Assembly: GCA_036557565.1 (NCBI GenBank) | Contig: DATBHJ010000114.1 | Coordinates: forward strand, 1,174-65,173 | Direction of reading: 5' to 3' | DNA from: Gemmataceae bacterium | GTDB lineage: Bacteria; Planctomycetota; Planctomycetia; Gemmatales; Gemmataceae | Length of the DNA: 64,000 bases | Shown here: positions 39,504 through 57,488 of the stretch, piece after piece | Position numbering within the stretch: the first letter of the stretch is position 1 | Layout: each line of letters opens with the position of its first letter | The notes under the pieces: generated by a model | What the model was told of the DNA's origin: nothing | Database searches by the model: none | What the model saw: the letters and a program-made list of their open reading frames with translations, nothing else | Made by a program: the position numbers and the translations under genes

Positions 39504-39626
39504 GACGCCATCCTATGTTCGGTCCACTCTAACGTAGAGAGAAAGCGTAGCCAACATCATAACTGGCCCGTTTCCTCCACCCCGATTCAATTATCTCTTC
39601 CGTCTAGTACACACAAGGATCAGTCC

Positions 39627-41465: not shown

Positions 41466-41508
41466 GATTGTTATGAAATCCCCGACGGTTGTCTCAGCCA
41501 AATCGCCG

Positions 41509-42432
41509 CTAGGCCAAGCATTGCCAGCCGCCACATTTCATTCGGCTAATGGCGCGAGCAGCATCCAAAGTGGCGATGAAACTTTGTGGCATCCATGTTG
41601 ACCTTGCTATTGGTATCGATCCTTTCAGAAGTTCCGGCCTGAAGAATCCTTTTTTTATCTGAAATATGCTGTATCCGTTTTTCTCAAACAGTTTCGTCAC
41701 CTCTGACGGGTAAGCAGAATGATGTTCGAACACCCAATCGCGGATTCGGCGATCCTGAAGGACTTGCCGACTACCTCGCAACACCTTCTCTTCGTGCCCT
41801 TCTACATCCATTTTGGCAACCCCAACAGTGCTTAAACCATCCAAACAGCGGTCTAATGTAGAGCTTGGTACAGAAATAAAAGAAGCGGTCGAAAGGTCAC
41901 AGGCGCTTTCTTCTACGACGCGACCTGTCCCTCGATTGTGGGATTCCTCTAGAGGCAATTGAAACTGCACCGATCCTTCGCAATCGGATAGCGCTAAGCC
42001 GAAAACCTGGATGACGGCCCCTCCAACCACCTCTCTCCAATTGGCAACGTTGTTTTGAAGTTCTATCTCAATTCTCGGGTTAGCCTCAAAACATAATACT
42101 CGACCCCTGCTCCCTACTCGCTTGGCAAGGAGAGCTGTCATATAACCGATATTTGCCCCCAGATCGAGAGTCGTTTCCCCCTCGTCACATAACCTCCACA
42201 GGACTTCAGAAACAGCCAAATCATACACGCCCAGGTGTAGCAGTGCCTTACCTAGATCCTCCGATGGGTCGACCTGAATTGACCACCCCCAGGGCAATTG
42301 AGCGACCAATCGTTCAGCCCGAATTTTAAACAACGACCGCTGAAGGCGACGAACGATCTGCGTTGGCCGCAATAAGTATTCGGGTTTGAATATAGCAGAA
42401 AGGCCTATGCCGATTGAATGTTTCCGCAACAT
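41509..42432 (-). CDS. FkbM-family methyltransferase
   Basis: LDLGANIGYMTALLAKRVGSRGRVLCFEANPR and VAKMDVEGHEEKVLRGS. ATG 42432; the track start is a TTG at 42447. Confidence 0.88.
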   Translation of the reverse strand: MLRKHSIGIGLSAIFKPEYLLRPTQIVRRLQRSLFKIRAERLVAQLPWGWSIQVDPSEDLGKALLHLGVYDLAVSEVLWRLCDEGETTLDLGANIGYMTALLAKRVGSRGRVLCFEANPRIEIELQNNVANWREVVGGAVIQVFGLALSDCEGSVQFQLPLEESHNRGTGRVVEESACDLSTASFISVPSSTLDRCLDGLSTVGVAKMDVEGHEEKVLRGSRQVLQDRRIRDWVFEHHSAYPSEVTKLFEKNGYSIFQIKKGFFRPELLKGSIPIARSTWMPQSFIATLDAARAISRMKCGGWQCLA

Positions 42433-42506
42433 TATGTCATTTCTCAAGAGCTAACCTGAAATGTACCGCTCTGCGGTCTCGAAAAACGTGGGCGGCACCT
42501 TTTCTA

Positions 42507-43355
42507 TCACTTTGCTATAGACCTGCAGCCTGTGCCACACCAAGGGCCACTACCGGAAGCCTCTGCCCGACGAAAATGGGCCACGCCAACATCGGGGCCG
42601 ATCACACGATCATGCGAGAGCAACAATCCCGCAGACTGAAGATGATTGAAGAGTTGTCGCTTAGGTTGATTCGGATGGTATTCCATTCCCAACTCCTTGA
42701 TCGGAAAGAAGGAACGCGGCGATGACGCTTTCAAGGCTTCATGCTCCCCTCCTTCGATATCTACTTTGACGAAGTCGATCGTTTCCGATTGAAAATGACT
42801 GCAGGCATTTTGGATAAGTTCCTCAAATGTAACGACATGCACCTTGGCATGTCCCTCCCCGTCGCACGGGGAGGCGGCTGGCAAAATACCGCGATATTGA
42901 GAAGGAACTGCGCCGGACATTACTCGAATGCCCGGACACTCGGCAATTCCGACGTTCCAACAGTCTACACGACACGCCACCCTATTTCTCGCTACATTCG
43001 AATGAAGTTGGGCGAACGTCGTCGGAAATGGCTCGACTGCAATGATCCGCGCATCGTGGTTTCGAAACGCGGCATATAAGCTGAAGAAGCCGACATTTGC
43101 GCCGATGTCAACTACGGTTTCTGCGCATGACGACATCTTATATTCTTTGCGAAAATTAACGACCCAAGCGGTGACGAGATCATGAAAGTTCTCGGCTGTA
43201 ATCTGAATCCCATTCCTAAGATGGATGTCAAATGGATATCCAGAATGGTGAGGCGATAAATAGCGATGTAACACGGACCATGGTCGTCGACTCTGCCTGA
43301 AGCATCGCCAAACTTCAGGAAGTCGATTCAAGTGATTTAGTTGAATCTTCCTCAT
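42507..43355 (-). CDS. FkbM-family methyltransferase
   Basis: VVDIGANVGFFSLYAAFRNHDARIIAVEPFPTT and FVKVDIEGGEHEAL. ATG 43355 lies inside the 3' end of the upstream GT4 ORF (41-nt overlap). Confidence 0.88.
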   Translation of the reverse strand: MRKIQLNHLNRLPEVWRCFRQSRRPWSVLHRYLSPHHSGYPFDIHLRNGIQITAENFHDLVTAWVVNFRKEYKMSSCAETVVDIGANVGFFSLYAAFRNHDARIIAVEPFPTTFAQLHSNVARNRVACRVDCWNVGIAECPGIRVMSGAVPSQYRGILPAASPCDGEGHAKVHVVTFEELIQNACSHFQSETIDFVKVDIEGGEHEALKASSPRSFFPIKELGMEYHPNQPKRQLFNHLQSAGLLLSHDRVIGPDVGVAHFRRAEASGSGPWCGTGCRSIAK

Positions 43356-44601
43356 GAGATCTCCCTCCGCCGTCAGTACACAGAAATGAGCGGGCGGGAG
43401 CGATCCCTTGTGATCGACGCCGCCTAAGAGTAGAGTAATAAATCTTCAGACTCCGATCACCCATCAGCCGATGGTCAAAGCGAGCCATGGCCTGCTCGCG
43501 CGCTGCGGATGCCAAATGATCGCGAAGCCCACCCTCTTCCAACAATCGCCGGGAAGCCCCCGCCAGTGCAATTGCGTCGTTCACGGGCACGGTCAACCCT
43601 GTTTCTCCGTGCTTACTGACCCACGATACTCCGCTATGGGGGATCGCCGTGTTGATTACGGGACAGCCGCTCGCCATCGCTTCCACCTGCACGAAGCCGT
43701 ACCCCTCACTTCGCTCGTTGCTGGGGAACCACAAGGCGGTGGCGGCATGATAGGAGCCGATCAGCTCCTCTTCACTGACCCGCCCACACCAGACGATGCG
43801 CTGCCCGACGCCGACCTCTTCCGCTAACTGCCTCAGCTTGCTCTCCAGGGGGCCGTCCCCCACGATCAATAGCTTACCGGGAACCAAAGCCAAGGCACGG
43901 ATCGCATTGTGCAAGCCCTTGTAATAGACCAAGCGTCCTACAGCTAACCAGAGAGGCCGTCCATGCTCCTCCTGCAACCGCTGGGCATGTTTCTGTGTGG
44001 CCAGCGTTGGCCGTAGGTATGCACCCATTGGAATACCCATCGGCAGCACAACAAGCTTGCCACGGTAACGCTGGAGCACCGTCGACCCGCCGGGATATGT
44101 TGGGGAATTCGAGATCAAAATGGCGGCTCGGCGAAAGACTAAATGCTCAAAGGGCCGCTGGGCCATACCTAACAATCTCTGCTTGATTACATCGCTGTGG
44201 TAGGTGACCACCAAGGGTGTCCGAGGCTGGAGCGCCGCCAGAGCCAGCAACATGGTCGGGTTAGGTACGTGCAAGTGCAGTACATCCGTTGCCGAAGGCC
44301 TCAGTCCCGCCAGCACGCGCGGCAGGCCAGGACATACGTCGAGCCGAGCGAGGGACGCCCGCCGCCCCACTCGCGTCACCTTCACAGAGCCGTCCCACTC
44401 CTCCACCGTCTCCGTAGCAGCGAAACGCTCCCAGGTCACGTCCCGCCCCTTCCGATCGAGGTGATTAACGCAGACGACGCGCACCTCCGCACCCAAGGCA
44501 GCCTGGGCCTGAGCGAGGATGCGGACGTGCGTTTCTATCCCACCCGTGGCCGGCGAGTAGAACTTTCCCAAGTGACAGATCCGCAACGAGCTATTCCCCA
44601 A
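43315..44601 (-). CDS. glycosyltransferase family 4
   Basis: LRICHLGKFYSPATGGIETH... and SEGYGFVQVEAMASGCPVINTAIPHSG. There is no ATG near the 5' end, so the probable start is TTG at 44586 or 44601. Confidence 0.85.
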   Translation of the reverse strand: MGNSSLRICHLGKFYSPATGGIETHVRILAQAQAALGAEVRVVCVNHLDRKGRDVTWERFAATETVEEWDGSVKVTRVGRRASLARLDVCPGLPRVLAGLRPSATDVLHLHVPNPTMLLALAALQPRTPLVVTYHSDVIKQRLLGMAQRPFEHLVFRRAAILISNSPTYPGGSTVLQRYRGKLVVLPMGIPMGAYLRPTLATQKHAQRLQEEHGRPLWLAVGRLVYYKGLHNAIRALALVPGKLLIVGDGPLESKLRQLAEEVGVGQRIVWCGRVSEEELIGSYHAATALWFPSNERSEGYGFVQVEAMASGCPVINTAIPHSGVSWVSKHGETGLTVPVNDAIALAGASRRLLEEGGLRDHLASAAREQAMARFDHRLMGDRSLKIYYSTLRRRRSQGIAPARSFLCTDGGGRSHEEDSTKSLESTS

Positions 44602-44637
44602 GTACCCTTGCTCCTCTCCGTTCGATCATGCGAAGAA

Positions 44638-45429
44638 TCAAATCCTCCCCGCGAACCAATACCAGGCCAAGCCGATCCATTCGTGGCTGGCCGACTCACA
44701 CCCATTGATCCCTTCTATCATGGGGACGAATTGGTATCCGGACAGCTGGAATTCTGTCGCCAAATAACGACAGCCAGACGGGAACACCTCGAACCCTTGT
44801 TTGCGGAAGCAACGCACCGCGCGAGGCAGATGGATCGCTTCGGTCACCAGTGCAATTCGGGTCACCCCTCGGTTTTCCAGAATCTTCCGGCTCTCAACTG
44901 CGTTTTCATAAGTGGTCCGCGAGTTGTTCTCCACGATCAGATCGGAGGAGTGTACACCTTGCTGGACTAGTAGCTGCGCCATCAAATCGGCGCACGCCAG
45001 ACCAGGAGTATCCGCTTCCGGCTTGCCACCAGTCACTAAGAGCAAACATGGACCGGCCTGACGATAGAGCCGGGCTGCATGAAGAGATCGGTAGAGGGCA
45101 TTCGCATCAAGTTCCGCCCGGTCGCGTACTTGATCGGGGGGAAGTGTGCCGCTGCCAAGGACAACAATGGCCTGGACATCCTTGGGCCGCTCAACCTGAT
45201 GGGCATACTGCCACTCCAGCGAACCCACAGCCAAATAACTCACTGCCGGGGTGGACAGAACGACCAACAAAAGAAGCGGCATCACCAGCAAAAGCAAGCT
45301 GAGCCGCTGCTCTGGCCGCTTTCGCCAGATACAAACGATTGTCGCCCCAAGGAGCACCAAGCAAAAGACATAAGGATGCAAGAAGTAGGAGATCAGTTTG
45401 TACAATGGTTCGGCAACAATTGAGTCCAA
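44638..45429 (-). CDS. DUF218 / YdcF-ElyC-SanA family protein
   Basis: Two N-terminal TM segments, then AIVVLGSG, LLLVTGG, ENNSRTTYENAV and IALVTEAIHLPRAVRCF. TTG start. Confidence 0.85.
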   Translation of the reverse strand: MDSIVAEPLYKLISYFLHPYVFCLVLLGATIVCIWRKRPEQRLSLLLLVMPLLLLVVLSTPAVSYLAVGSLEWQYAHQVERPKDVQAIVVLGSGTLPPDQVRDRAELDANALYRSLHAARLYRQAGPCLLLVTGGKPEADTPGLACADLMAQLLVQQGVHSSDLIVENNSRTTYENAVESRKILENRGVTRIALVTEAIHLPRAVRCFRKQGFEVFPSGCRYLATEFQLSGYQFVPMIEGINGCESASHEWIGLAWYWFAGRI

Positions 45430-45592
45430 GTGGACGCGACCAAGTCAAAAAGCGAACTCCTGGCGCACTCCGTGCCCGTGGGTTGCAGTAACAACCCTCG
45501 CCCGCGAAGGGCAGACAACCGCCACAGCGAATCCCCCTGCTTGTGCGGGGAATATCGACTGCTCTCATCACATATAGGAGAGGGTTTGGCGG

Positions 45593-46180
45593 TCAGGCGC
45601 TCCGGGCATTAACCTGCCGGGCGTCAAGAGGCTGCAACATCCAGCCCTCGATTTCCACAGAGGCTCCACGCTGGATGAAGTCAACCTCGATAACAAATCG
45701 CATGTTTTTATCGCGTCGGATTACTTTTCCGTGGAGGCCGGCAAGGGGGCCCGCGGTTAGCACGACTGTCATACCCGATTGAAGACGATCCTCGGGCGCT
45801 ACAGGGGCGCCACACTCCATTAGCTGGTAGATTCTCTTCAAATCCGTTCTCAGCCGTTCTCCCTCGGAGACCGACAGCACGCGAATGATTTGGTTTGTTC
45901 GCAGAGCTTCCAGACGCGCGTTTTCATCGCCGCGCAGAAAGACATAGCTAGGAAACAGGGGGACATAGGATGCCAACGAACGCCCACGGATTTGTAACCG
46001 TTTTTGATACAGGGGGAGAAAGAAATCTATCCGGAGCGCTAGAAGTTTACGAGCCAATGCCTTCTCTGCTCGAGGACGAGTATGCAGGACCCACCACGAC
46101 TCTGTTGCTTCTGGGTCTTGACAAGACGCTGTCAAGAGGTCGGCTGGTTGCACGAATGGTTCCAGTGGTAGAAGTGGCAT
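45593..46180 (-). CDS. specialised NusG paralog (NGN + KOW; UpxY/RfaH/LoaP-like operon-specific antiterminator candidate)
   Basis: NGN domain: WWVLHTRPRAEKALARKLLALRIDFFLPLY...VPLFPSYVFLRGD. KOW motif: GMTVVLTAGPLAGLHGKVI. It is the first gene of the 30-kb minus-strand operon. ATG 46180. Confidence 0.85.
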   Translation of the reverse strand: MPLLPLEPFVQPADLLTASCQDPEATESWWVLHTRPRAEKALARKLLALRIDFFLPLYQKRLQIRGRSLASYVPLFPSYVFLRGDENARLEALRTNQIIRVLSVSEGERLRTDLKRIYQLMECGAPVAPEDRLQSGMTVVLTAGPLAGLHGKVIRRDKNMRFVIEVDFIQRGASVEIEGWMLQPLDARQVNARSA

Positions 46181-46294
46181 CGACAAAACCTTGGATTGAT
46201 CGCCTTCGATCCACCCGTCATCCTTCCTTAATTACCAACCTTCCCTTCCTTCATCCTGAAGGGGAAAACATCAATAAAAGCACCCTTATTCGCC

Positions 46295-46322
46295 TCTATA
46301 CGGCGAATTCCATTGTGTTCAA
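46295..46322 (-). promoter_or_regulatory. candidate sigma70-type promoter for the NusG-paralog operon
   Basis: The minus strand reads TTTTTTT-TTGAAC-16 nt-TATAGA, about 115 nt upstream of ATG 46180. Planctomycete promoter rules are poorly known, so this is tentative. Confidence 0.3.
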
Positions 46323-46511
46323 AAAAACTTCGATACGGTCGTAATTGTAGCGCGCCAATTTCACATCGTCAACCTTTTCCTCCAGTATTTCATCTTGTTC
46401 TCTTTTTATCTGGTTCTCATATTTATTCCGCCAGGATACAAGCGCTTTTCTCTTCACCTCAGAGCTACCTAGAAACGGGCCAGGCTCGAACGAGCGACTT
46501 GCCAAGCCCAC
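46296..46511 (-). CDS. hypothetical small charged protein in the AT-rich leader region (weak)
   Basis: 71-aa ORF with GTG start; a shorter form begins VKRKALVSWRNKYENQIKREQDEILEEKVDDVKLARYNYDRIEVF. No homology recognised. Its composition differs from neighbouring genes. Confidence 0.25.
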   Translation of the reverse strand: MGLASRSFEPGPFLGSSEVKRKALVSWRNKYENQIKREQDEILEEKVDDVKLARYNYDRIEVFLNTMEFAV

Positions 46512-46681
46512 ATATCGAGGTAATCAAAACTATTCAATAAGCATTTCCTGTGCCAAGCCGTAGCTAGGGCCCAGCGCACGCTCTAAATCATACCCAAATA
46601 TGGCTTTGTGGATAGCGAGACGGCAAATGCACCGTCGAAAATGTTTACAAAAAGTTACATCGCTCCTTGCAGGCTTACGAT

Positions 46682-46705
46682 GAGCGTTAACAAAAGTTAA
46701 CGCTC
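46682..46705. promoter_or_regulatory. perfect 10-bp inverted repeat GAGCGTTAAC-AAAA-GTTAACGCTC (operator-like)
   Basis: Read directly from the sequence. A related half-degenerate copy, GTTTAC-AAAAA-GTTAC, lies at 46643-46658. Confidence 0.5.
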
Positions 46706-48218
46706 GCACGTCTGCCGGGAGTGAGCATACACGCTAGTTGAAGGTTGGAGGACGTCAAGACGTCTCTTTTAGCCGCAGCGGGGCAGGGCAGGTGCTGAGG
46801 GCAGCCTGACCAAGAGGAGGTAATCTACTGTCGGAGGTCATAAGGAATTAGCAAATCAGAACTCTTGCGATTAGAATAACAATCAGACTCCGACTCGATA
46901 TCTTCGGTGCCACTGACAACATGACTGGTCCAAGAACCGATGGCAGATAAGACTGAGGGCGATGTTAAGAAAAGCATATTGCATGTCCCGAGTGATCTCG
47001 GTTGCCGAGCAGAGATTGCGAAAGCCGTGCCCGCACGATAAGGTGCGCTCGACGACACAGCGATACGCTCCTAGGCATACAAGTTGCGGCACCTCCTCGT
47101 CAGGAGGTGTACCGGCACTATCGGCGTCATCCGTTTTTCTGAGGACACAGGCGTCGTCACCGACCGCGACCAACCCGCAGCCATCGTCGCTATTTCCAAT
47201 CTCAAGCGACTTGCCGGATGGACAACTTACTGCAGAGAGTCGAGAGCGCTTATCGCCCACCTCAGAGCCTCGTATCTTGCACCTGCCTGATGACGCCGAG
47301 ATCCTAACGTCGTTGTCATTCTACCTCATCCGCCAACATTCTGCTACACCCGTTGTCTTAATTCATCGCAAATTCGCCTCATTATAGCGTGAGGCGAGCT
47401 TACCTTTCTTCTTTCGTGTAGTCCATCCTCACACGCTGCCCGTGCTGGGGACGGCCTACTTTGTCGCTTGGTACCCAGCTTGCAAGCCTGGGCGGTACGG
47501 TTTTCCCTAAACCGGACCGCCCGGGGGCAGGGGCGGTCCCATGATAGGAGATCACTCCCATGCTGACACAATGATCCTCCTCCGCTGCCGCTCACCTGCA
47601 GGCCTTCTTTCTCGTCATCGTCCTCCCAAGGATGCTGTCCCTTGGCCAAGTGTTCTTTCGCGGTATCCAGCGTCCACACCGCTAGGAAGACCGCCATCCA
47701 AGAAATGATTGGACTGGCTTGTTTTGGCACCTGAAACTGGCAGAAAGGGGCAAAGATACCACCCGCTTCCCGACCGCTCTCGCTTCCTCTGCCGCCCACG
47801 CTGAGCCAACGGTGCGCCACTTTTGTGGCCAGAAAAGAGCCAACGAAGTCCCGTCACCCGTGGCGCAGCAACAGCATCACTTCGCCCTCCGTGAACTTCC
47901 GGTTTTCGAGCCACTAGCCGTTCCGCCGGTAAGTGAGGTCCGACACGACAAGACTCAGTCGCCACCGGATGAAATCGTCTGCCTCAACCTGGATTTCGCC
48001 AGCAAGCGAGCCAGTTGAAGTAAGCATGATCGAGACATCGTCGAGGAGCTCATGCTTGGCGCGAGCGCGATCGACGTTGCCGATAATTACCAAGTCAGCC
48101 TCGTACCCATCTTGCAAAAGAGAAGAGTTTCACCAGTATCGGCAGGCCCTCTGCGGAACCCTGCCCTTGGCCCCGGCCTCTACCTCTACCATCAGCATTA
48201 TTTGAGCGAAGAGGAACC

Positions 48219-48413
48219 ATGAGCGCGTACTTGTTGTTCGAAGAATTCCACCTGACCGTTCTCGTCTCTGCGGACCTGGAAGAATCCGCGTGTGAAGCAA
48301 TCCACCGGATCCTCGTGAGTCGACCCTTTCACACCGCACTGGACTCCGCCGTCCGCCAAGTCGTCCGCCAATACTCCGATCTCGACCCGATCCGGGTCCG
48401 CATCTCCCACTAA
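48219..48413 (+). CDS. hypothetical 64-aa protein, first ORF of the cassette
   Basis: ATG preceded by a GAAGAGGA SD. Acidic, helical-looking sequence with no family recognised. Confidence 0.45.
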   Translation: MSAYLLFEEFHLTVLVSADLEESACEAIHRILVSRPFHTALDSAVRQVVRQYSDLDPIRVRISH

Positions 48414-48533
48414 CCGACTCAAAACAATTCTGCTTGCAGCGACAATCCAGAGTTGCCCTCAGCTGGTGCACCGGAATGTTGCCGCAGCGCCGGCCTCTTT
48501 TCACTTAACCCAAGCACAGGAGGAACTGTCCGG

Positions 48534-48896
48534 ATGTCACACATCGTCACGCTGCAAACGAAGGTGCACGATCACGCCGCCGTGGTTGCCGCTTGCCAGC
48601 GACTCAACCTCACTCCGCCGCAGCAAGGTACCGCTCGGCTCTACAGTGGGGAGGCTGAGGGGCTCATGGTGCAGCTGCCCGGCTGGCAATACCCCATCGT
48701 CATCGATACCCTCAGCGGCATCGTCCGCTACGACAACTTCGAGGGACGATGGGGCGAGCCACAACACCTCGATCGTTTCTTGCAACTCTATGCCGTCGAA
48801 CGAGCGAAACTGGAAGCGCGCAAGAAGGGTTACACCGTCAGCGAGCAAGCCCTCCAGGATGGAAGCATCCGAGTGCAAATCACCCAAGGCTTTTGA
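48534..48896 (+). CDS. DUF1257 / Ycf35-like protein
   Basis: ATG 48534 follows an AGGAGG SD. MSHIVTLQTKVHDHAAVVAACQRLNL...WQYPIVID...FLQLYAVERAKLEARKKGYTVSEQALQDGSIRVQI matches my recollection of the DUF1257 pattern (MSH..T..T start, ~120 aa). Confidence 0.75.
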   Translation: MSHIVTLQTKVHDHAAVVAACQRLNLTPPQQGTARLYSGEAEGLMVQLPGWQYPIVIDTLSGIVRYDNFEGRWGEPQHLDRFLQLYAVERAKLEARKKGYTVSEQALQDGSIRVQITQGF

Positions 48897-49069
48897 CTCG
48901 ACCATCTCTCCCTCTTGACAAAAACTCCTCTGGAGCGCCCGAGCCTGCACGGCACGCCAGTGAAGCATTGCCCTTTCTTCTGTGGATCTCGAACAAGAAC
49001 ACCGACAGCGGCGTGCCGGCCGAAGAGCCAGCACTAATCCTCTTTCTCAGTCCGTCACAAGGAACCTTC

Positions 49070-49258
49070 ATGCCGCGCATCATCGAGGTCATCGTCTCGC
49101 CGCAGGGCGAGGTCACCCTGCAAACCAAAGGCTACGCCGGCAGCGACTGCTTAGAGGCCAGCAGGTTTCTGGAGCAAGCGCTCGGCATCGTCACCAACGA
49201 CCGGAAAACGACGGAGTTCTATCAAAAGGAGACAGCCCAGCAACAACTCAGGCAATAA
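49070..49258 (+). CDS. DUF2997-like small protein
   Basis: 62 aa: MPRIIEVIVSPQGEVTLQTKGYAGSDCLEASRFLEQALGIVTNDRKTTEFYQ. This follows the family pattern I recall (I.V.pdG.V...v.G..G..C...T..le.aLG). Confidence 0.7.
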   Translation: MPRIIEVIVSPQGEVTLQTKGYAGSDCLEASRFLEQALGIVTNDRKTTEFYQKETAQQQLRQ

Positions 49259-49371
49259 CCCTTGCCCCCTCCGGCGGCCTCGCGTCGCGCAGAACGCCGA
49301 TGCGAGACCGCCTTCCTTCTACGATCAGCTCCAACTATCCCAAAAACCTGGCCCAAAGAAACGGACGGCTC

Positions 49372-50853
49372 ATGAACCTGACCGAACGCCTGACCGACTA
49401 TGTCCATGCCGCCTGCACCGGCTTGTGGATTCAGACCCAGGAAGCCGATGAGGCCGAGCGAGAAATCCTCCAGCACGCCAGCCAGCAGGACTGGAAGCTG
49501 GCTATCTGGGACGTGACCAACGGCCTGCGTCTGGCCGGAGCCAGCAGCCCGATCAGCACCGACACTCGCGATCCGCTGGCGGCACTGCGGGCCCTACCTT
49601 CTCTGGCCGAACGCAACGGCACAGCGCTATTACTGCTTCACCAATTCCATCGATTTCTCAATCATCCCGAAGTGATTCAGACGATGTTCAACCAACTCGT
49701 CGCTGGCAAGCAGCAACGCACCTTCCTGGTAGTTTTATCACCGCTGGTGCAAATCCCTGTCGAGCTGGAGAAGCTCTTCATCGTCCTCGAACATGCCCTC
49801 CCAGATCGCCAGCAACTCGAAGGGATCGCCCGCGAGCTTACCAGCGACGCGCCCGAGGACTTGCCCCAAGGAGAAGCTCTCGAGCGCGTTCTCGATGCCG
49901 CGGTGGGATTGACACGCTACGAAGCCGAGGCTGCCTTCGCCCTGTCCTTGACCCGGCACAATGCCATCCGGCCCGATAGCGTGTGGGAACTGAAAGCGCA
50001 GACGCTCAAGAAGAACAACCTGCTAACGCTGCACCGCGGCAGCGAACGCTTCGATACACTGGGTGGACTGGCCAGCCTCAAGGACTTCTGCCGCCGCGCC
50101 CTGCAAACGGGCAAGACGGTCAAGCCCCGTGGCATCTTACTTTTGGGTGTCCCCGGCACGGGCAAGAGTTGCTTCGCGCGGGCCCTGGGTAACGAGGTCG
50201 GCCGTCCCACCCTGCTATTGGACATCGGCGCGCTGTATGGCTCATTGGTTGGTTCTACCGAAACCAACATCCGCCAGGCTCTTCGCATAGCCGACGCCAT
50301 GAGTCCGTCGGTGCTTTTTGTGGATGAGCTGGAAAAAGCGCTCAGCGGCGTAGGTGGTGCGGGCGACAGCGGCGTGGCCACGCGGCTGTTTGGTACGTTT
50401 TTAACCTATCTGTCCGATCGAACCAGTGACACGTTTGTGATCGGAACCTGTAACGACATCTCCAAATTACCTCCGGAATTCTCCCGCGCCGAACGCTGGG
50501 ACGGGATTTTCTTTCTCGACCTTCCCCATAGCACCGACAAGGATGCCATTTGGACGCTCTATCGCCGTCAGTTCGGCATTGCGGACGGCCAGGCGCGACC
50601 GGATGATACAGACTGGACGGGGGCCGAAATCTGCTCGTGTTGCCGTCTGGCAGCCTTGCTGGACGTCCCCCTGACGCAAGCTGCCCATCACGTCGTGCCA
50701 GTGGCCGTCACTGCCGCCGAAGCCGTGGAACGGCTACGCAACTGGGCCTCGGGTCGCTGCCTGAGTGCCTCCTATCCGGGTATCTACACGCGTCACGGCA
50801 GTATGGGATCACGCCCCAGCCGAAAGATCCGACGCGATCCCTCCAGCAACTAA
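49372..50853 (+). CDS. Ycf46-like classical-clade AAA+ ATPase with ~230-aa N-terminal domain
   Basis: Walker A GILLLGVPGTGKS, Walker B SVLFVDELEKA, GDSGVATRLFGTFLTYL, second region of homology LPPEFSRAERWDGIFFLDLP, and C-terminal VERLRNWASGR. I prefer ATG 49372 (MNLTERLTDYV); the long track ORF begins inside the DUF2997 region. Confidence 0.85.
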   Translation: MNLTERLTDYVHAACTGLWIQTQEADEAEREILQHASQQDWKLAIWDVTNGLRLAGASSPISTDTRDPLAALRALPSLAERNGTALLLLHQFHRFLNHPEVIQTMFNQLVAGKQQRTFLVVLSPLVQIPVELEKLFIVLEHALPDRQQLEGIARELTSDAPEDLPQGEALERVLDAAVGLTRYEAEAAFALSLTRHNAIRPDSVWELKAQTLKKNNLLTLHRGSERFDTLGGLASLKDFCRRALQTGKTVKPRGILLLGVPGTGKSCFARALGNEVGRPTLLLDIGALYGSLVGSTETNIRQALRIADAMSPSVLFVDELEKALSGVGGAGDSGVATRLFGTFLTYLSDRTSDTFVIGTCNDISKLPPEFSRAERWDGIFFLDLPHSTDKDAIWTLYRRQFGIADGQARPDDTDWTGAEICSCCRLAALLDVPLTQAAHHVVPVAVTAAEAVERLRNWASGRCLSASYPGIYTRHGSMGSRPSRKIRRDPSSN

Positions 50854-51006
50854 GACTCCTTCGCCGGCGCCTTTCTGTCCCCATTGCCGTCGCCAGTTCC
50901 CATCCTTCCGCACTGGCAAGTGCTTGTCCCATTGCGTGACTTGATCACGGCAAGGGGCAGGTGCGGATGAAGATCGATCATCCTTCTCTTGGTCCAGGAG
51001 TCGTTC

Positions 51007-51966
51007 ATGAGCACCCTTCGCGTATCCGACATTCCGCTGGTTCCCGAAAGCCCGGCCCAGCGCCTGCGCCGGCTGGCCGCGGCCGTGCGCGTCCATTTCA
51101 CCTGGTGGGGAGTCCACCGCACCCTCACGGCACGTCAGAAGGAAGAAGTCGGCGTCACCTACGATGCTGATGCCCGCTTCCTCACTGCTGGCAAAAAGCT
51201 GGTGGATACCCGCCATGAAGCATTTCGCCGGCTGACAGCGCTGCGCACGCTGGTCAGCAATTACTGGCGCGGCCTGACGCTTCCCTACGTTGAGGTTGGC
51301 GTCCGCCTCATCCGCCAGAACGACATCGAGCCGTTTGTGCATACCTTGACCGGCTTCCGTGAAGAATTGACACAAGCAGAAGCCGATCTCAATGCTGTCT
51401 TCGAGGAGATTAAGGCAGATGCCCAACGCCGCCTGGGGCGGCTGTACGATCCGTCCGATTATCCGCCGGAAGTCCGGGGACTGTTCGGGCTGGACTGGGA
51501 TTTCCCCTCCGTAGAGCCGCCCAACTACCTGCTGCAAATAGCTCCGGAAGTTTACGAACAGGAGCAGCAGCGTATCGGCCGCCGCTTTGAGCAAGCCATT
51601 GAGCTGGCCGAGCAAGCGTTCCTGGGTGAGTTCGCGCGTCTGGTCTCGCATCTCACAGAAAGGTTGAACAGTACCTCTGATGGCGAGCGCAAGGTCTTCC
51701 GCGATTCAGCGGTGACGAACCTCATGGACTTCTTCGAGCGATTCCGCCATCTGAATGTGCGCTCGAACGTGCAATTGGACGAGTTGGTCGAGCAAGCGCA
51801 GCGCGTCGTTCAGGGGGTGGGTGCGCAGGAACTGCGCACGAGCGCGGACTTGCGGCAGCACGTGGCCACGCAGCTGGCCGGTGTGGAGTCGGCCCTGGAC
51901 GGCCTGCTGGTTGAACGGCCGCGGCGGAGCCTGGTGCGCAACCGGCCAAACCAGGGAGGACATTGA
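51007..51966 (+). CDS. hypothetical 319-aa helical protein (faint resemblance to DUF3150-type plasmid/ICE proteins, unverified)
   Basis: ATG 51007 with an AGGAG SD 6 nt upstream. The pattern is ...VHFTWWGVHRTL...AGKKLVD...LPYVEVGVRLI...LYDPSDYPPEV.... A long antisense ORF is judged a shadow. Confidence 0.7.
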   Translation: MSTLRVSDIPLVPESPAQRLRRLAAAVRVHFTWWGVHRTLTARQKEEVGVTYDADARFLTAGKKLVDTRHEAFRRLTALRTLVSNYWRGLTLPYVEVGVRLIRQNDIEPFVHTLTGFREELTQAEADLNAVFEEIKADAQRRLGRLYDPSDYPPEVRGLFGLDWDFPSVEPPNYLLQIAPEVYEQEQQRIGRRFEQAIELAEQAFLGEFARLVSHLTERLNSTSDGERKVFRDSAVTNLMDFFERFRHLNVRSNVQLDELVEQAQRVVQGVGAQELRTSADLRQHVATQLAGVESALDGLLVERPRRSLVRNRPNQGGH

Positions 51967-52226
51967 TGGAGCTACTCATCCGTCCGGGTGGCGAGGTTCG
52001 CTGTGTTTATGGCGAAGCCATCGACCTAGAGGCTCTGGGGCAGCCGCACATCACGCGGGCTAGCATGGTCGAGCCGGACGAGCAGGGGCGATGGTGGGCT
52101 GACCTTTCTCCCGTAAATGGTCCGCTCCTGGGTCCCTTTCGGCAGAGGACGCAGGCCCTGGACGCCGAAGAGGTATGGTTGAGCCGATATTGGTTAATGG
52201 CGCCGAGCTCGACTGCTCAGCAGTAG
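51966..52226 (+). CDS. hypothetical 86-aa protein, translationally coupled to the previous ORF
   Basis: TGATG stop/start overlap at 51964-51968. MELLIRPGGEVRCVYGEAIDLEALGQPHITRASMVEPDEQGRWWADLSPVNGPLLGPF. Confidence 0.6.
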   Translation: MELLIRPGGEVRCVYGEAIDLEALGQPHITRASMVEPDEQGRWWADLSPVNGPLLGPFRQRTQALDAEEVWLSRYWLMAPSSTAQQ

Positions 52227-52384
52227 CTTCGTGAGGACCGTGGACCCGCTCTTGTCTTGAAGCGAGGTTCGCTCAAGCCCAACACAGTCAACACGCAAGG
52301 AGACCGGCCCTTACCAGCCGACGCGCCGGTTCTCGAACATCCCATCCGCTGGCGATCGCAAACGTGGTCCAAGGAGAGAAGCTC

Positions 52385-52573
52385 GTGAAAGTAACCATCG
52401 AAAACGGCGAGCTGGTCATTCGGCTGCCCTTGAACAAGACGCCGATTCCCTCCAGTAGCGGCAAAACTTTGGTTATCGCCTCAACGCACGGCAATCAGAA
52501 GACGGATGCCGTCGTCAACGGCCAGCCCGTCGTCGTCGGGGTCAACGCCTACATCGCCCGGCTCACGCGCTGA
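52385..52573 (+). CDS. hypothetical 62-aa beta-rich protein
   Basis: GTG 52385 preceded by an AAGGAGAG SD. VKVTIENGELVIRLPLNKTPIPSSSGKTLVIASTHGNQKTDAVVNGQPVVVGVNAYI. Confidence 0.55.
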   Translation: MKVTIENGELVIRLPLNKTPIPSSSGKTLVIASTHGNQKTDAVVNGQPVVVGVNAYIARLTR

Positions 52574-52694
52574 GCTGGGAAACAAGAGGTGGGCCCTTCG
52601 CTGTCAGCCTCCCATTCACAAATGATGATTGCCCGTTCTCCCTGCACCGCAGGGCGGGCCGTCTTTCTTTCCCTCTTCTTGCCAAGGAGCCTGT

Positions 52695-52997
52695 GTGACG
52701 ACACCGACCGAAAAACCGCGCAAGGCCACGGCCCGAGACCTGTTCTTTTTCGCGAATCCCGAACATTGGCCGACGTGGCCGGTCCTGCCTGTGGTTCGCC
52801 GCCATGACGATGGCGAGATGCAATGTGGACTCCTTTACGACATCATGCACCTCAGCGGACGCACCGGCTTTAGCAGCACCGTCTTTTTGTGCAATATCTT
52901 CCTGATGCCACAGAATGAGGACGAGTTCCTTGCCTTGCCCAAGGAAGTATTCGACTCGCCCGAGGAAATGGCGGCGGCTGGCTGGTGCGTCGATTGA
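52695..52997 (+). CDS. hypothetical 100-aa protein
   Basis: GTG 52695 preceded by an AAGGAG SD. ...DLFFFANPEHWPTWPVLPVVRR...STVFLCNIFLMPQNEDEFLALPKEVFDSPEEMAAAGWCVD. Confidence 0.55.
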   Translation: MTTPTEKPRKATARDLFFFANPEHWPTWPVLPVVRRHDDGEMQCGLLYDIMHLSGRTGFSSTVFLCNIFLMPQNEDEFLALPKEVFDSPEEMAAAGWCVD

Positions 52998-53638
52998 AGA
53001 CTGGCTGGTTCTGCGTGGAGATGCCCGGGTAATTGAACCGAATTCTGGAAGGAATCAGATCGTGCCGCGAGTCCCGACGCTGCCTCGACTCCTGCGAAGG
53101 TAGCTCAAGCGGGTCGGTTCCGACTTTTGCCTGAACTACCTGCAGAAGATCAGCCGTCGCGTTTCGGGCCACAAGAGCCTTCCCGCCCCGAATCATTGGA
53201 ACTGTGAAGGTGATAAGAGCCAAGAGCCCAAGCGCATGCCAATGACCTCGACGCTGTTCGAGGACAACGGCGACAGTACCTATGCCAACGGTCTTTCAGC
53301 ATCTTCGGTCGAGTTGGTCACACGAGCACTTAAAGCCGGAGCTGCCGTCGCGCCGCTCCCAAGCTGCCAGGATTTCAAGGACGTCCCGCGCCTGGAAAGG
53401 CTTTTTGATTGATCATTGCTCCGGCAGGCGGGAAGGCCGCCGGCATAAGCGGCGCCAGAAATCCCATATGGATCCGGATGTCCCAAGCCGCTCGCCGCTG
53501 CTCCAGGCGTCGTTGGGGCGGCGATCTCACTTTATCGCTTGGCGGTCGGGGATAGTTTGCTCAAGAAGGAATCCACTCTGGCCAGGACGCACCGACCTTT
53601 TCCCCTTTCCCGAGTTCTTTCCACCAGGAGTCAGAATC

Positions 53639-55087
53639 GTGATCGTACTGCCACGCTCTCTGGCCCGGCAGTTCCGGGTCTTCTTGCGTCGTTGTCTACA
53701 ACCGCCGGGTCCACGCCAACCGCCATTCATTCGCCTGCAGGCCGACTCGCATGGCCTTGAACTCTTAGCACACCAGCAGGAATGCGTGATCGTCTACCAG
53801 CAGCCCGGAAAATGGGCCCGCGAAACGCTCTTCTTTCCTGCCGACGTGCTGGCCGACATCGAAGGCAAAGACGGCTCGGCCACGCTGGAAACAACCGGAG
53901 AAGGCAAGGGCGAAGCCCGCTGGGACGATGCTGGTAGCCCGCGCGTTAGACCCTTCGATTCAGTGAAGCCCGAAAGGATGCCCGAAGTGCCGGCGATGCC
54001 CGCACACTTTCAGCCCATCGAGCCGGCCTTTCTGCAAGCGCTGGCTGAGGCAACCCGGACAACCGCTCGTGATCGTGTTCACTATGCGCTTACGCGCCTC
54101 CAGTTGCGAGGACGGCGTGGCCAGCTGATAGCCACGGATGGACGGCAATTGCTCTTACAAGTCGGCTTCTCTTTGCCCTGGCCCGAGGATCTCCTCATTC
54201 CTGCTCTGCCGTTGTTCGTAAGCCGCGACCTGCCGGTTAGCGAGCCACTCGCCATTGGTCGCACCGACAAGCACGTCAGCTTGCGCATTGGTCCCTGGAC
54301 CTTTCATTTGGAGATTGACAAAGACGGCCGCTATCCCAACGTCGAGAGCGTCATCCCCAAGATAGACACCACGGCCAGCCGGCTGCATCTGTCCGAGGAC
54401 GATGCCCGCTTTCTTGTCCATGTCTTGCCCCGACTGCCAGGTAATGAAGACGGTTCGGCACCCGTGACCCTCGATCTGGGCCAAGAGGTGCGGCTGCGGG
54501 CACGAGCCGAGGACTCGCCCCAGATCAGCGAAGTTTTACTGTCCGGCTCGTCTTGTGAAGGGCCCCCTGTCCGCATCGCCTGCAACCGACGCTTTCTGTG
54601 GCGTGCCGTGCAATTGGGCTTCCGCGCCATTCTTATCCGCAACGCCACTACTCCCTTGGTGTGCCGTGATGAGACACGGACCTATCTGTTCATGCCGTTG
54701 GACGGCGTCTTGGCGCCCGCGGCCGACGCCGTGCGCATTGTTTCGGGCGAGACTCTCTCTGTCGTCACCGAGGCCAAACCGGAACTTCAACCCCAAAGAG
54801 ACAAACCCAAACCCGAGCCCAAAAGGAGCCGAGCAACCATGCCTCGATCTCAAACGAATGGTGAGGAACCACGCAACGGTCCTGCGGGAGTTCCAACGAC
54901 GCCGCGCCCCTCTTCCGAAGCGGAAGCGCCCGACGCGCTGGTAGAAGCGGAGGCCTTGCGCTCGCTGCTGCACGAAGCCCAGATGCGGCTCGGTCACCTG
55001 CTGGCCGCGCTCAAGCAGCAACGGCGGCACAACCGTGCCCTACGAGCCGCCATGGATTCGCTGCGCGGTCTGCGGCTGGATCGCTGA
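53639..55087 (+). CDS. DNA polymerase III beta sliding-clamp (DnaN) homolog with ~125-aa low-complexity + coiled-coil C-terminal extension
   Basis: GTG 53639 after an AGGAG SD. Four collinear DnaN-like motifs appear at DnaN-like spacing: QLIATDGRQLL (~aa 165), GRYPNVESVIPK (~230), ACNRRFLWRAVQLGF (~315) and TYLFMPLDG (~350). The tail is ...EAEALRSLLHEAQMRLGHLLAALKQQRRHNRALRAAMDSL. Confidence 0.8.
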   Translation: MIVLPRSLARQFRVFLRRCLQPPGPRQPPFIRLQADSHGLELLAHQQECVIVYQQPGKWARETLFFPADVLADIEGKDGSATLETTGEGKGEARWDDAGSPRVRPFDSVKPERMPEVPAMPAHFQPIEPAFLQALAEATRTTARDRVHYALTRLQLRGRRGQLIATDGRQLLLQVGFSLPWPEDLLIPALPLFVSRDLPVSEPLAIGRTDKHVSLRIGPWTFHLEIDKDGRYPNVESVIPKIDTTASRLHLSEDDARFLVHVLPRLPGNEDGSAPVTLDLGQEVRLRARAEDSPQISEVLLSGSSCEGPPVRIACNRRFLWRAVQLGFRAILIRNATTPLVCRDETRTYLFMPLDGVLAPAADAVRIVSGETLSVVTEAKPELQPQRDKPKPEPKRSRATMPRSQTNGEEPRNGPAGVPTTPRPSSEAEAPDALVEAEALRSLLHEAQMRLGHLLAALKQQRRHNRALRAAMDSLRGLRLDR

Positions 55088-55117
55088 ACCCCTTGATCCT
55101 GGACCTGGAGAGTGCTT

Positions 55118-55735
55118 ATGAGCTGGGATTCTGCGAGCAGCTGGCCCGTCCGCGGCAAGCTAGCCCGGCATCTGGGCCGTTTACAACAGCACCTGGATTC
55201 AGTCGGAGAACAGGTACGCGAGGCCGTTGCCAACGCTGTTGGCCGTACCGTGGCCGAGGCCGTCGGCGAAGCCGTCTACGATACCCTAGCCCCTTACGCG
55301 GATCCTTCGGCCCCTGAATCTCGCTATTACCACCGCGCTACTGACCGTTCTGTGCGCACCCGGCAAGATTGGGACGATCCAGCCTGGAGGCGCCCTGGAG
55401 ATTCCTCGCCTTGGCGTGATCCCTACGCTGATGACAACTACGACGAACCGCGTTACGACGACGGAGCCGAGGCGGAAGATCGATCCTCCCTCCGCGACGC
55501 GCCGCAGGCGCGGCGTTGGCGGCGGGCAATGGCGGCAGGCCTGCAAGCGGCAGCCTGGTGGCTGCAGCGGCATCCCGGTCAGTTGTCGCTCCTGGTGGCC
55601 TTGGCTGTTGGTTCGGTGGCCGGATTGGCGGTGCTGGCCGGTCCTGTTAGCGGCGTCGCAACTTTGGTGATGTCTGCTCTGGGCTTGGCCTACCTGCTCG
55701 ACCTGGTGCGCTTGTCTAGCGCCCTGCTGGGCTGA
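55118..55735 (+). CDS. tail-anchored membrane protein with xAVx repeat and acidic Trp/Tyr/Asp-rich linker
   Basis: ATG 55118 with a GGAG SD. EAVA-NAVG-RTVA-EAVG-EAVY repeat; DWDDPAWRRPGDSSPWRDPYADDNYDEPRYDD linker; C-terminal hydrophobic region LSLLVALAVGSVAGLAVLAGPVSGVATLVMSALGLAYLL. Confidence 0.7.
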   Translation: MSWDSASSWPVRGKLARHLGRLQQHLDSVGEQVREAVANAVGRTVAEAVGEAVYDTLAPYADPSAPESRYYHRATDRSVRTRQDWDDPAWRRPGDSSPWRDPYADDNYDEPRYDDGAEAEDRSSLRDAPQARRWRRAMAAGLQAAAWWLQRHPGQLSLLVALAVGSVAGLAVLAGPVSGVATLVMSALGLAYLLDLVRLSSALLG

Positions 55736-55780
55736 GACGGCACAACCGGAGCTACACGAAATGGAAGTGTGCCATCCTCA

Positions 55781-55808
55781 CCCGCAGCCGGCAGGCACCG
55801 GCTGCGGG
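55781..55808 (+). terminator. perfect 11-bp stem-loop between the two tail-anchored genes (possible attenuator or intrinsic terminator)
   Basis: CCCGCAGCCGG-caggca-CCGGCTGCGGG followed by TCTTGTTCTG and, 17 nt later, TTTTTTCTT. Read directly from the sequence. Confidence 0.45.
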
Positions 55809-55847
55809 TCTTGTTCTGAGTCAACTTTTTTCTTGGAGATTTCAGCC

Positions 55848-56360
55848 GTGACAGCGACAACGACAATGGGAACGCATACGAACGGCCAGACGCGGAAGAC
55901 GCTGGCCAGCCAGATCGACCGTTTGGACGGCATTCTCGACGGACTGGATGCTGCCCTGGCCGGGGCGGTGCAAGAGGCCGTCGAACAGGCTGTCAAGCAG
56001 GCCGTGCAGGCCGTCTTGGCCGAGGTGCTGACCAACCGCCAGCTACAAGAACAACTGCAACGAACTGCTCGGACAGCTGAGCCGGCTGGGGAATCTGAAT
56101 GTAAACGGAGCCTGCCTTACCGACTATGGCAAGCCACGACCGAGGGCGTGCGGCGCACCGTCCAAATGCTGAAGAAACGTGGCCGCGGTCTCGGCGTGGC
56201 CCTGGTAGCTGCCGGCGCGATGATGACCGGCATCGTCTATGCCGTCCGCAAGAAGTGCATCTTGATCGCCTCGAGCGTGTACCGACACGGCAAGTGCTTG
56301 GCTCTCAGGGCCATCTCGACCTTGACGAGCTTCCTGCCGTCCTTCGCATTTGGCAGCTAA
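55848..56360 (+). CDS. tail-anchored membrane protein with xAVx repeat (paralog-like to 55118..55735)
   Basis: GTG 55848 (GGAG SD) or ATG 55866. GAVQ-EAVE-QAVK-QAVQ-AVLA repeat. C-terminal TM LGVALVAAGAMMTGIVYAV. Confidence 0.65.
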   Translation: MTATTTMGTHTNGQTRKTLASQIDRLDGILDGLDAALAGAVQEAVEQAVKQAVQAVLAEVLTNRQLQEQLQRTARTAEPAGESECKRSLPYRLWQATTEGVRRTVQMLKKRGRGLGVALVAAGAMMTGIVYAVRKKCILIASSVYRHGKCLALRAISTLTSFLPSFAFGS

Positions 56361-57394
56361 GGAAGAGAGTGGAGAGATGAGGTCGGCCTGGCCGGTCTAT
56401 CGCTCGGTTGTAGCGGCACAAGCCGTACCGGAGCGAGTAATCCCGCGCAGGTGCACAACTTGATCTCTCCACTCTTTTCGGCATCGTGGCGGCTAGGGCC
56501 AGCGTCTCGTTACGGCATCCGTCCGGCACGTCAACGATATGGCCCTGAATACATCCAGTCGAGGTTTAGACGTTGGCGGCTGGTCGATTCTTGCCGTCGG
56601 GTGCATCCCGTCGCCCAGACACAGTACAGCGAGACGGACCTGCCAGCGTTGACGGAGTTGGCGACTCAGGTGCTGCTGTCACATATCACGACCGTCGAAT
56701 TGCTCGTAGATAGGATCGATGGAGCCCGCGAGATTTCTGGACAGTTTCTGGAAATAGTCAAACCAATACTGAACGCTGAGAAACACGCTCGCTTGCTCTT
56801 CAACTGCATTTACCGTCCTGCGGAGCCATCCGCGGCCCATCACGCTCATCGCTTTTTTTAACTATCAGAACGAGCTCTGCGGCGGTGGAAATCGTAATTC
56901 TGCCTCTCAATTATGGTCATCTGCTTTCATTGTCGGAACGATCAGGGATACCGTCAGGACAAGCCCTATCCGGTTGGCACAAGAGGTATTTCATCGAGCG
57001 CCGAGACGCCACTGGACGAAACGCTCACGGGCGCTGGCGACCCGCTCGCAGCGAAGGATTAATGGGCTTTCAACGACCCCCATGATTCATGTTCTTTCGG
57101 ATCAAGTTATATGGCACAATCTCCTTCCTTTTCGGGACTGCTGGGACAGACACCATCACCCGCTTGACGTAGGACCGCTTCCTTTGGGCCGTTATGCTCG
57201 CCGAAACTCTATCGCGTCGCCAGTTCCTGGCGGCGGCCCGTACGCTCACCTCGTGGCCATCCCACTATGTCTACTTCGCCGGCAAAGACCCCTGGCCGCC
57301 GAGCAGGAAACCGCAAGCAGACACTTGCGAGATGGGCCACCGAGGCGCTAATCAAATACGGACAAAGAAAGGGGAACTCCAGTCGATAAAACCC

Positions 57395-57423
57395 TTGAAA
57401 TAGTTTATTCAGGCGTGTAAACT
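57395..57423 (+). promoter_or_regulatory. candidate sigma70-like promoter TTGAAA-17-TAAACT upstream of the GT2 gene
   Basis: Read from the sequence, about 65 nt upstream of ATG 57489. Tentative for this phylum. Confidence 0.3.
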
Positions 57424-57488
57424 CCCCCTCGAAAGTCACGGATGAAGCTCGGTGAGCAATTGCGGACGAGCGATGGATTGGAGTCTTG

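Follow-up and report, generated by a model that had tools for sequence, protein, structure and literature searches.

Ycf46 and Ycf35 are the products of conserved cyanobacterial and plastid genes whose mechanism has been unexplained for decades. The slr0373-slr0374-slr0376 operon of Synechocystis has been published, with slr0376 encoding a protein of 116 amino acids; this stress-responsive Ycf46 operon, whose Synechococcus counterpart is Synpcc7942_0416-0418, is chromosomal and stress-induced. In both organisms, few genes respond to stress with as strong an induction as Ycf46. A review of ferredoxin gene clusters describes a separate conserved cluster composed of DUF2997, ycf35 (DUF1257), and fed7. 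Across 127 red-algal plastid genomes, ycf35 and ycf46 tend toward joint loss, together with ycf34 and the heme oxygenase gene pbsA, which provides independent phyletic support for a functional link. Here, we examine a locus encoding a DUF1257 protein, a DUF2997 protein, and a Ycf46-family AAA ATPase within 64,000 nucleotides of DNA (hereafter, the window) from a Gemmataceae metagenome-assembled genome (MAG). This triad proved to be mainly a phage and plasmid module that moves as a unit.

The exact ATPase protein is on record from a Gemmataceae MAG, in keeping with the original prediction that the genome was planctomycete-like. That prediction also placed the triad at 48534-50853, and three consecutive open reading frames (ORFs) on the same (+) strand occupy exactly these coordinates:

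48534-48896, + strand: DUF1257/Ycf35-family small protein, 120 amino acids (Pfam; hhalign; AlphaFold 2 [AF2] model with a predicted local distance difference test [pLDDT] score of 87.5)
49070-49258, + strand: DUF2997 small protein, 62 amino acids (Pfam PF11211, 55.4 bits; phrog_23133)
49372-50853, + strand: Ycf46-family AAA+ ATPase, 493 amino acids (Pfam AAA; phrog_8638; AF2 model)

The window locus resembles the stress-responsive Ycf46 operon in that a DUF1257 gene adjoins an ATPase gene of the same family, with homology over the full length and a shared N-domain. The cyanobacterial operon, however, carries an slr0373-family gene upstream and no DUF2997 gene, and its DUF1257 gene follows the ATPase, whereas in the window DUF1257 comes before it and DUF2997 lies just upstream of the ATPase. 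The window form also adds two genes, encoding a DUF3150-like protein and an 87-amino-acid protein, and groups with phage copies, unlike its chromosomal, stress-induced cyanobacterial counterpart. The ycf35 cluster shares with the window the same two small-protein families side by side, but their neighbor is a ferredoxin gene (fed7) rather than one for an AAA ATPase, and the order (DUF2997, then DUF1257) is the reverse of that in the window.

Two further systems invite comparison through the ATPase. The unfoldases p97, Cdc48, and VAT are alike in having two stacked AAA folds per subunit, as predicted for the window protein by modeling, and a classic-clade second domain with all catalytic motifs. 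They use small dedicated cofactors; the candidates for such partners in the window, DUF1257 and DUF2997, are without solved relatives. The window ATPase differs from these unfoldases in that its first tier lacks a P-loop, there is no N-terminal double-psi-barrel cofactor domain, and its pore loop is SLVG rather than aromatic. IetAS (Gao_Iet) likewise features a classic-clade AAA protein on mobile elements and in defense islands, and the AAA domains are similar. This similarity is confined to the AAA domain and falls far under the family cut-off; moreover, no IetS protease is present, and the N-domain and partners differ. A scan of PADLOC-DB v2 returned AAA-domain matches to IetA and TRIP13 only, with nothing for the small proteins and no protease partner.

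Family membership and architecture of the triad proteins

Against Pfam DUF1257 (PF06868), the first protein scored 20.2 bits (E = 7e-4), under the 22.2-bit gathering cut-off, and the match covered only the C-terminal 45 residues. A custom hidden Markov model (HMM), seeded on annotated DUF1257 proteins from plasmids, nevertheless scored the 120-residue protein at E = 1e-39, and a 50-sequence profile headed by it aligned with a cyanobacterial DUF1257-named protein over 117 columns (hhalign probability 99.8%, E = 9e-29). Relatives 63-74% identical to the window protein carry PF06868. A Met-Ser-His N-terminus has been reported for essentially all Ycf35 proteins (PMC13060386); the window protein begins MSHIVT and has the corresponding length of ~120 amino acids. 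Because the custom HMM, the hhalign comparison, the PF06868-bearing relatives, and the Met-Ser-His signature all agree, we regard DUF1257 membership as secure at the sequence level despite the sub-threshold Pfam score.

Ser2 is invariant in the 50 sequences and is usually followed by His. The AF2 model is a confident alpha/beta fold in which Met-Ser-His, the most conserved residues of the protein, occupy the only unstructured segment. Foldseek did not find a solved structural relative of this confident model (best PDB match, E = 0.3), and sequence-profile searches of the PDB with DUF1257 and DUF2997 gave nothing better than E = 0.08. With no PDB match for either small protein, no fold assignment is possible.

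The second protein was readily assigned, matching the whole DUF2997 model (PF11211, positions 1-47 of 47) at 55.4 bits against a cut-off of 24.1 and phrog_23133 at E = 1.8e-6. In an alignment of 16 diverse homologs that includes the window protein, Gly13, Gly24, and Cys27 are invariant. The PDB profile search returned no sequence relative or solved relative of DUF2997.

The ATPase matched Pfam AAA at 84.6 bits through a C-terminal classic AAA domain and the phage family phrog_8638 over its full length (E = 2e-79). It is 32% identical to the cyanobacterial protein P0511 over 490 of 493 residues (E = 8e-77), and the 90% cluster of P0511 bears the names "AAA domain-containing protein ycf46" and "stress-responsive protein Ycf46". 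Ycf46 identity was taken from such source names of exact clusters; NCBIfam is without a Ycf46 model, and an NCBIfam scan of the window and cyanobacterial Ycf46 proteins yielded nothing beyond generic AAA families. Conserved N-domain columns are common to the window and cyanobacterial Ycf46 proteins, and the N-terminal 235 residues mark out a distinct family, with 3032 representatives (50% clustering, E ≤ 1e-3). By virtue of full-length homology to Ycf46-named proteins and this family-specific N-domain, the window ATPase qualifies, on sequence grounds, as a Ycf46-family member in the broad sense. Enterobacterial plasmids (Klebsiella, Escherichia, and others) gave hundreds of matches in the AAA domain only; query coverage of at least 80% was found in 10 records. 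ATPases of the mycobacteriophage Corndog type were considered as possible triads and rejected; these are full-length homologs with 27% identity, and the HMMs find neither DUF1257 nor DUF2997 nearby.

Residues 1 to ~215 of the ATPase read as a degenerate AAA-like first domain with no GxxxxGK[ST] P-loop. From about residue 245, a classic-clade AAA domain follows, with Walker A (GVPGTGKS), Walker B (DELE), and R372 and R375 of the second region of homology, none of which varies among 78 diverse members. The S-L-V-G pore loop, in which Leu is nearly invariant, resembles the D1 loop of p97. In a PDB profile search, the family profile matched VAT, p97, and Cdc48 D2 (E ~1e-86), and Foldseek aligned the AF2 model (pLDDT 86.7) with the D1-D2 region of p97/Cdc48/AFG2 over 520-550 columns, with a template modeling (TM) score of up to 0.69. 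Because the model spans both p97/Cdc48 tiers, the N-terminal 215 residues are predicted to adopt an AAA-like fold minus the P-loop. As modeled, the ATPase is a p97/Cdc48-like double-tier AAA+ protein with a first tier devoid of nucleotide binding and a catalytically intact second tier.

The relationships of the ATPase were examined in a distance-based neighbor-joining tree of 168 family members, none of them from plastids. The window protein falls in a clade of Planctomycetota and IMG/VR viral sequences, apart from both cyanobacterial clades. It is 50-67% identical to its planctomycete and phage relatives versus 31-33% to cyanobacterial proteins and, judged by tree and identity, is not an ortholog of the cyanobacterial Ycf46 proteins. 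Homologs of the ATPase are abundant, with 5668 at E ≤ 0.001 among the 8000 candidates scored. The window copy is therefore one of thousands, and its presence in a planctomycete is not surprising.

Distribution and co-inheritance of the triad

Three sets of loci were compared: 80 species-representative genome loci fetched via the ATPase alone, 80 viral loci from IMG/VR, and six plasmids, with Nitrospirota, Cyanobacteriota, Aquificota, Bacillota, and Actinomycetota as the phyla sampled. The full triad is present in 77 of the 80 viral loci, and five of the six plasmids encode a full-length ATPase with DUF1257 and DUF2997 alongside. Both small genes stand beside the ATPase in about 29 of the 80 genome loci. 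Triad-bearing genomes belong to Planctomycetota, Myxococcota, Omnitrophota, KSB1, Clostridia, and Thermodesulfobacteriota, with one archaeal MAG (L065; loci are denoted by L numbers); the archaeal MAG L067 has the ATPase and DUF2997, with DUF1257 not detectable. The flanking DNA fetched around the ATPase loci, 2.32 Mb in all, was scanned for both small families. All 231 matches fell no more than 3 kb from the ATPase, with 229 of them on the ATPase strand. The adjacency of the triad genes is far beyond chance.

Distance matrices computed across 112 loci correlate strongly for the ATPase and DUF1257 (r = 0.92) and for the ATPase and DUF2997 (r = 0.90), values reached by none of 500 permutations; the three genes are therefore inherited as a unit. 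A natural DUF1257-DUF2997 fusion of 185 amino acids is encoded directly after the ATPase in a Clostridia MAG (L077:9554-10111), and in many loci the DUF1257 and DUF2997 frames are parted by a single stop codon. The fusion and the co-inheritance favor the small proteins acting together. A separate arrangement is seen in a KSB1 genome (L089:3514-9809), where the first of three tandem ATPase paralogs is separated from the second by the DUF1257 and DUF2997 genes.

Cyanobacteria present two distinct situations. Five loci (L083:7551-9991; L072, L075, L076, and L079) contain an operon of an slr0373-family gene, the stress-responsive Ycf46 gene, and a gene for a 117-residue DUF1257 protein. The L083 gene upstream of Ycf46 scores 165 bits on NF052617, the model of the slr0373 family, which none of the ten window proteins scanned matches. 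DUF2997 is not part of the Ycf46 operon in the loci examined. The 90%-identity cluster of the operon DUF1257 protein has 1206 members from several cyanobacterial orders, a breadth that marks this protein as unusually conserved. A second cyanobacterial clade of Ycf46-named proteins (17 loci) has neither small gene nearby. In L074, the one locus of this clade that was inspected, the ATPase gene adjoins what we take, from reading the sequence, to be a YidC-like gene.

These data bear on several claims of the original prediction. The three family assignments held up against Pfam, the custom HMM, hhalign, the PF06868-bearing relatives, and a Ycf46-named homolog. Co-occurrence outside this genome, the lack of which had been proposed as refuting, is evident in the viral, genome, and plasmid loci and in the distance matrices. 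The suggestion that the function is not photosynthesis-specific also stands, given the spread of the triad over phages, plasmids, Myxococcota, Bacillota, Actinomycetota, Aquificota, Nitrospirota, and archaea. The proposed clustering of related genes around slr0374 is largely confirmed by the slr0373-family/Ycf46/DUF1257 operon (DUF1257 proteins of 117 versus 116 amino acids), except that DUF2997 is missing from the operon loci examined. For the same reason, the label of a cyanobacterial-type triad is not sustained: the Ycf46 operon loci examined are without DUF2997, and the main carriers of the full triad are phages and plasmids. Nor is the triad an odd phyletic outlier in a planctomycete; its occurrence in the window is a matter of mobile elements, given that the window ATPase groups with planctomycete and phage copies.

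Genomic setting on mobile elements and in the window

Judged by gene content, the carriers of the module are real phages. On a 205-kb viral contig, the module lies at a distance of 4 kb from a gene for the terminase large subunit (phrog_675, E = 8e-55). Another viral contig, of 32 kb, has genes for both the large and the small terminase subunit, for RadC-JAB and Dam, and for DUF3150, an integrase, and a CI-type repressor, in addition to the module. At other Gemmataceae loci, the module genes adjoin a tyrosine integrase or a PD-(D/E)XK nuclease with an ATP-dependent ligase. In the window, the triad is the first part of a five-gene block ordered DUF1257, DUF2997, AAA, DUF3150-like, and 87-residue protein. 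The remaining features of this region are as follows:

50989-51966, + strand: DUF3150-like protein, 325 amino acids from a TTG start (JGI: 319 amino acids, 51007-51966), with homologs encoded after the ATPase elsewhere
51963-52226, + strand: conserved protein of 87 amino acids, fifth gene of the block, with homologs in 45 viral loci and in 8 loci from genomes or plasmids
53786-55087, + strand: putative beta-clamp-like protein, 433 amino acids (JGI), matching phrog_947 "DNA polymerase processivity factor" (E = 1.3e-6)
46200-57400 (approximate), no strand: island of ~11 kb that contains the block and several unassigned ORFs and interrupts a polysaccharide-biosynthesis region

The fourth and fifth genes follow the ATPase in Planctomycetota, on a Manganitrophus plasmid, and on about 50 viral contigs. 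A homolog of the DUF3150-like protein is encoded behind the ATPase in 50 viral loci and in 10 loci from genomes or plasmids. Pfam returned no match for the window protein, and one of its seven aligned homologs matches DUF3150 (PF11348) at E = 2.8e-4. The gene at the same position in a temperate phage contig (L141) encodes a DUF3150 protein (79.8 bits), as does the homolog on the Manganitrophus plasmid (37.7 bits), which is a split gene whose second half is matched by the window protein. The start of the 87-residue gene overlaps the stop codon of the DUF3150-like gene by 4 nucleotides, and its product has no family match in Pfam, NCBIfam, or PHROG scans. The original prediction had placed a clamp homolog next to the triad. 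The PHROG match of the 53786-55087 product agrees with this, but the protein has no Pfam or PDB sequence match. Only L010 and L016 have a homolog downstream of the block, which makes this protein a looser associate.

All-against-all clustering of neighbors was contaminated by antisense ORFs; beyond the five-gene block, it gave lineage-specific neighbors only. Phage versions of the block are interleaved with more genes (L110:9535-10149, L110:11094-12095, L110:13670-14116; L141:11979-12377), whose products include a weak match to DUF1281_C (Api92-like, ferredoxin-like), DUF6878, DUF6573, and a hexapeptide-repeat protein, the gene for the last lying between the DUF3150-like and 87-residue genes. 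In Myxococcota, the triad is ordered AAA, DUF1257, DUF2997 (L026:2702-7952; L023-L043, L060), and its neighborhood is conserved but lineage-specific. Several paralogous proteins encoded ahead of the triad there are, we presume from inspection by eye, FHA-like, and an HExxH-motif protein behind it presumably resembles DUF4157. A repeat protein, also behind the triad, clusters with an annotated pentapeptide-repeat protein. Six loci (L007, L008, L009, L056, L065, and L067; e.g., L008:8275-8856 and L065:13628-14209) have a gene for an NrdG-like radical-SAM protein beside the ATPase or triad. This protein has a CxxxCxxC motif and scores 109-119 bits on TIGR02491, under the cut-off of 126, and no glycyl-radical enzyme is evident nearby.

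The window island lies between a NusG-like gene (45593-46186, - strand) and a GT2 gene (57486-58331, + strand), and its flanking genes are absent from every related locus. No tRNA, Rfam family, or convincing flanking direct repeats were found at its edges, and promoter and terminator scans were near background. The ~2.3 kb upstream of the triad (46200-48500) have a G+C content of 0.53, compared with 0.58-0.60, and contain short ORFs only; no family match for these ORFs, RNA family, or tRNA was found there. On the - strand, 26800-46186 is taken up by an extended series of glycosyltransferase and methyltransferase genes that appears to be a polysaccharide cluster and ends with a DUF218 gene (44638-45429) and the NusG-like gene; the latter may encode a cluster-specific antiterminator. 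Farther downstream, a truncated SRAP (SOS-response-associated peptidase) gene at 60634-60870 (+ strand) covers the first 84 of 214 profile positions only and is probably a pseudogene. Four degenerate direct repeats of ~44 nucleotides, with 61-82% identity to a reference copy, occupy 59287-59483 and are apparently non-coding. A 116-residue ORF at 58684-59034 (- strand), with no Pfam match, resembles by eye a fragment of a DDE transposase.

Candidate functions and significance

We favor, at roughly even confidence, a reading in which the triad is the core of a self-contained protein-remodeling module of phages and plasmids, consisting of a p97-like ring and a DUF1257-DUF2997 pair. The ATPase would form a hexameric ring that remodels or unfolds proteins with ATP, and the two small proteins would most likely form a heterodimer working with that ring. 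The pair could be a cofactor that selects or gates clients, or it could itself be a regulated client. The invariant, unstructured Met-Ser-His N-terminus of DUF1257 may act as a contact or insertion element. On mobile elements, the module would probably serve establishment in, or takeover of, the host cell, and the cyanobacterial and plastid relatives (Ycf46 with slr0376-type DUF1257; Ycf35 with DUF2997) may be a domesticated, stress-induced version of the same machine. This reading extrapolates from the observed homology, domain architecture, mobile setting, co-inheritance, and natural fusion to a hexamer, an unfoldase activity, a complex of the partners, and a biological role.

Several points weigh against the remodeling reading. 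The pore-loop Leu replaces the aromatic residue of processive unfoldases, such that threading is not assured. No small gene lies within 8 kb of the ATPase in the 17 loci of the second cyanobacterial clade, in Armatimonadota, in Chloroflexota, or in Corndog; either the ATPase can work without the small proteins, or these genomes may encode them at other sites. The adjacency and co-inheritance would also be compatible with a relation of the toxin/antitoxin type or within a pathway. The proposed role on mobile elements is drawn from neighboring genes only, and these neighbors differ between lineages. Finally, Pfam, PHROG, and repeat scans found no integrase, terminase, or att sites in the window island.

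The module could instead act in anti-phage defense or anti-defense, with the AAA protein as sensor or effector and the small proteins as triggers or inhibitors, carried in defense islands or on mobile elements. We consider this rather unlikely. The AAA domain matches models of the anti-phage ATPase IetA/IteA (PADLOC, E = 1e-13; NCBIfam IteA, E = 2e-11), but these are matches to a generic AAA domain only (43.9 bits against a cut-off of 510 bits), an IetS-like protease partner is missing, and neither small protein was matched in PADLOC. Defense-type neighbors accompany the module in several places, including an ATP-binding/RloB pair, a zeta toxin, and DUF4007 on a Geminocystis plasmid, DUF499 in L010, double-GTPases in L017, and the FHA, DUF4157, and pentapeptide-repeat genes of the Myxococcota loci. 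In phage L141 and on the Manganitrophus plasmid, the module is flanked by RadC-JAB and Dam, genes typical of anti-restriction. Such neighbors, however, are not conserved between lineages, and the cyanobacterial relatives are chromosomal, stress-regulated housekeeping genes.

It is less probable still that DUF1257 and DUF2997 form a small redox, metal-binding, or radical-bearing pair for which the ATPase would be a maturation or repair chaperone, or by whose redox state the ATPase would be gated. The residues that could be involved are the one invariant Cys and two invariant Gly of DUF2997 and the invariant N-terminal Ser of DUF1257, usually followed by His, in its unstructured segment; neither protein, however, has a glycyl-radical motif, and a lone Cys cannot bind a cluster by itself. 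The remaining indications come from neighborhood and phyletic pattern. DUF2997 and ycf35 are linked to the ferredoxin gene fed7 in cyanobacteria, ycf35 and ycf46 are lost jointly with ycf34 and pbsA in red-algal plastids, two plasmids carry DsbA or thioredoxin-fold genes flanking the module, and the six loci with an NrdG-like activase gene span Bacillota, Actinomycetota, Spirochaetota, Myxococcota, and two archaeal MAGs. Six of ~168 loci is a small share, and the radical-SAM gene occurs neither in the window nor in any planctomycete or phage relative; all of the links rest on neighborhood.

This redox proposal can be extended, at the price of a lower probability that makes it doubtful, to a metallo-, redox-, or radical-bearing DUF1257-DUF2997 heterodimer that uses the (Met-)Ser-His group and the invariant Cys, is served in some lineages by the NrdG-like activase and in cyanobacteria by a ferredoxin, and switches the pseudo-D1/D2 unfoldase. 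Phages and plasmids would use the switch for host takeover, and its domesticated form in cyanobacteria and red-lineage plastids would be the Ycf35/Ycf46 stress checkpoint. If true, this would provide two conserved plastid genes, long unexplained, with their first mechanism.

Recent acquisition of the Ycf46/Ycf35 system from cyanobacteria with its cyanobacterial function kept, which the title of the original prediction implies and which the shared family membership and the Ycf46 names given by sources to the cyanobacterial homologs might suggest, is very improbable and is contradicted by the tree and gene order, since the window protein sits among planctomycete and IMG/VR phage sequences (50-67% identity) away from both cyanobacterial clades (31-33%), the gene order and the DUF3150-like and 87-residue partners are those of the phage form, and the cyanobacterial operon has an slr0373-family gene and no DUF2997. 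On this comparison, the module is a relative of the cyanobacterial Ycf46/Ycf35 genes but did not arise from them.

The families themselves have been catalogued, and annotation pipelines already label the neighbors on plasmids. The literature we searched holds no description of the triad, of its phage and plasmid habitat, or of a Ycf35-Ycf46 link, and the five papers in it that name DUF1257 or DUF2997 make no mention of an association with the ATPase. The analysis places the Ycf35-type and Ycf46-type families and DUF2997 in one co-inherited module that is commonest on phages and plasmids and spread across bacteria and archaea. The module links Ycf35-type and Ycf46-type proteins functionally, removes photosynthesis as the functional frame, and adds a widespread, unstudied accessory set to the genes of jumbo and temperate phages. 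It also offers compact versions for biochemistry, in the form of three to five genes from a temperate phage or plasmid. An AAA+ remodeler with dedicated small partners is a known kind of machine, and the module makes the long-standing question of Ycf46 and Ycf35 testable.

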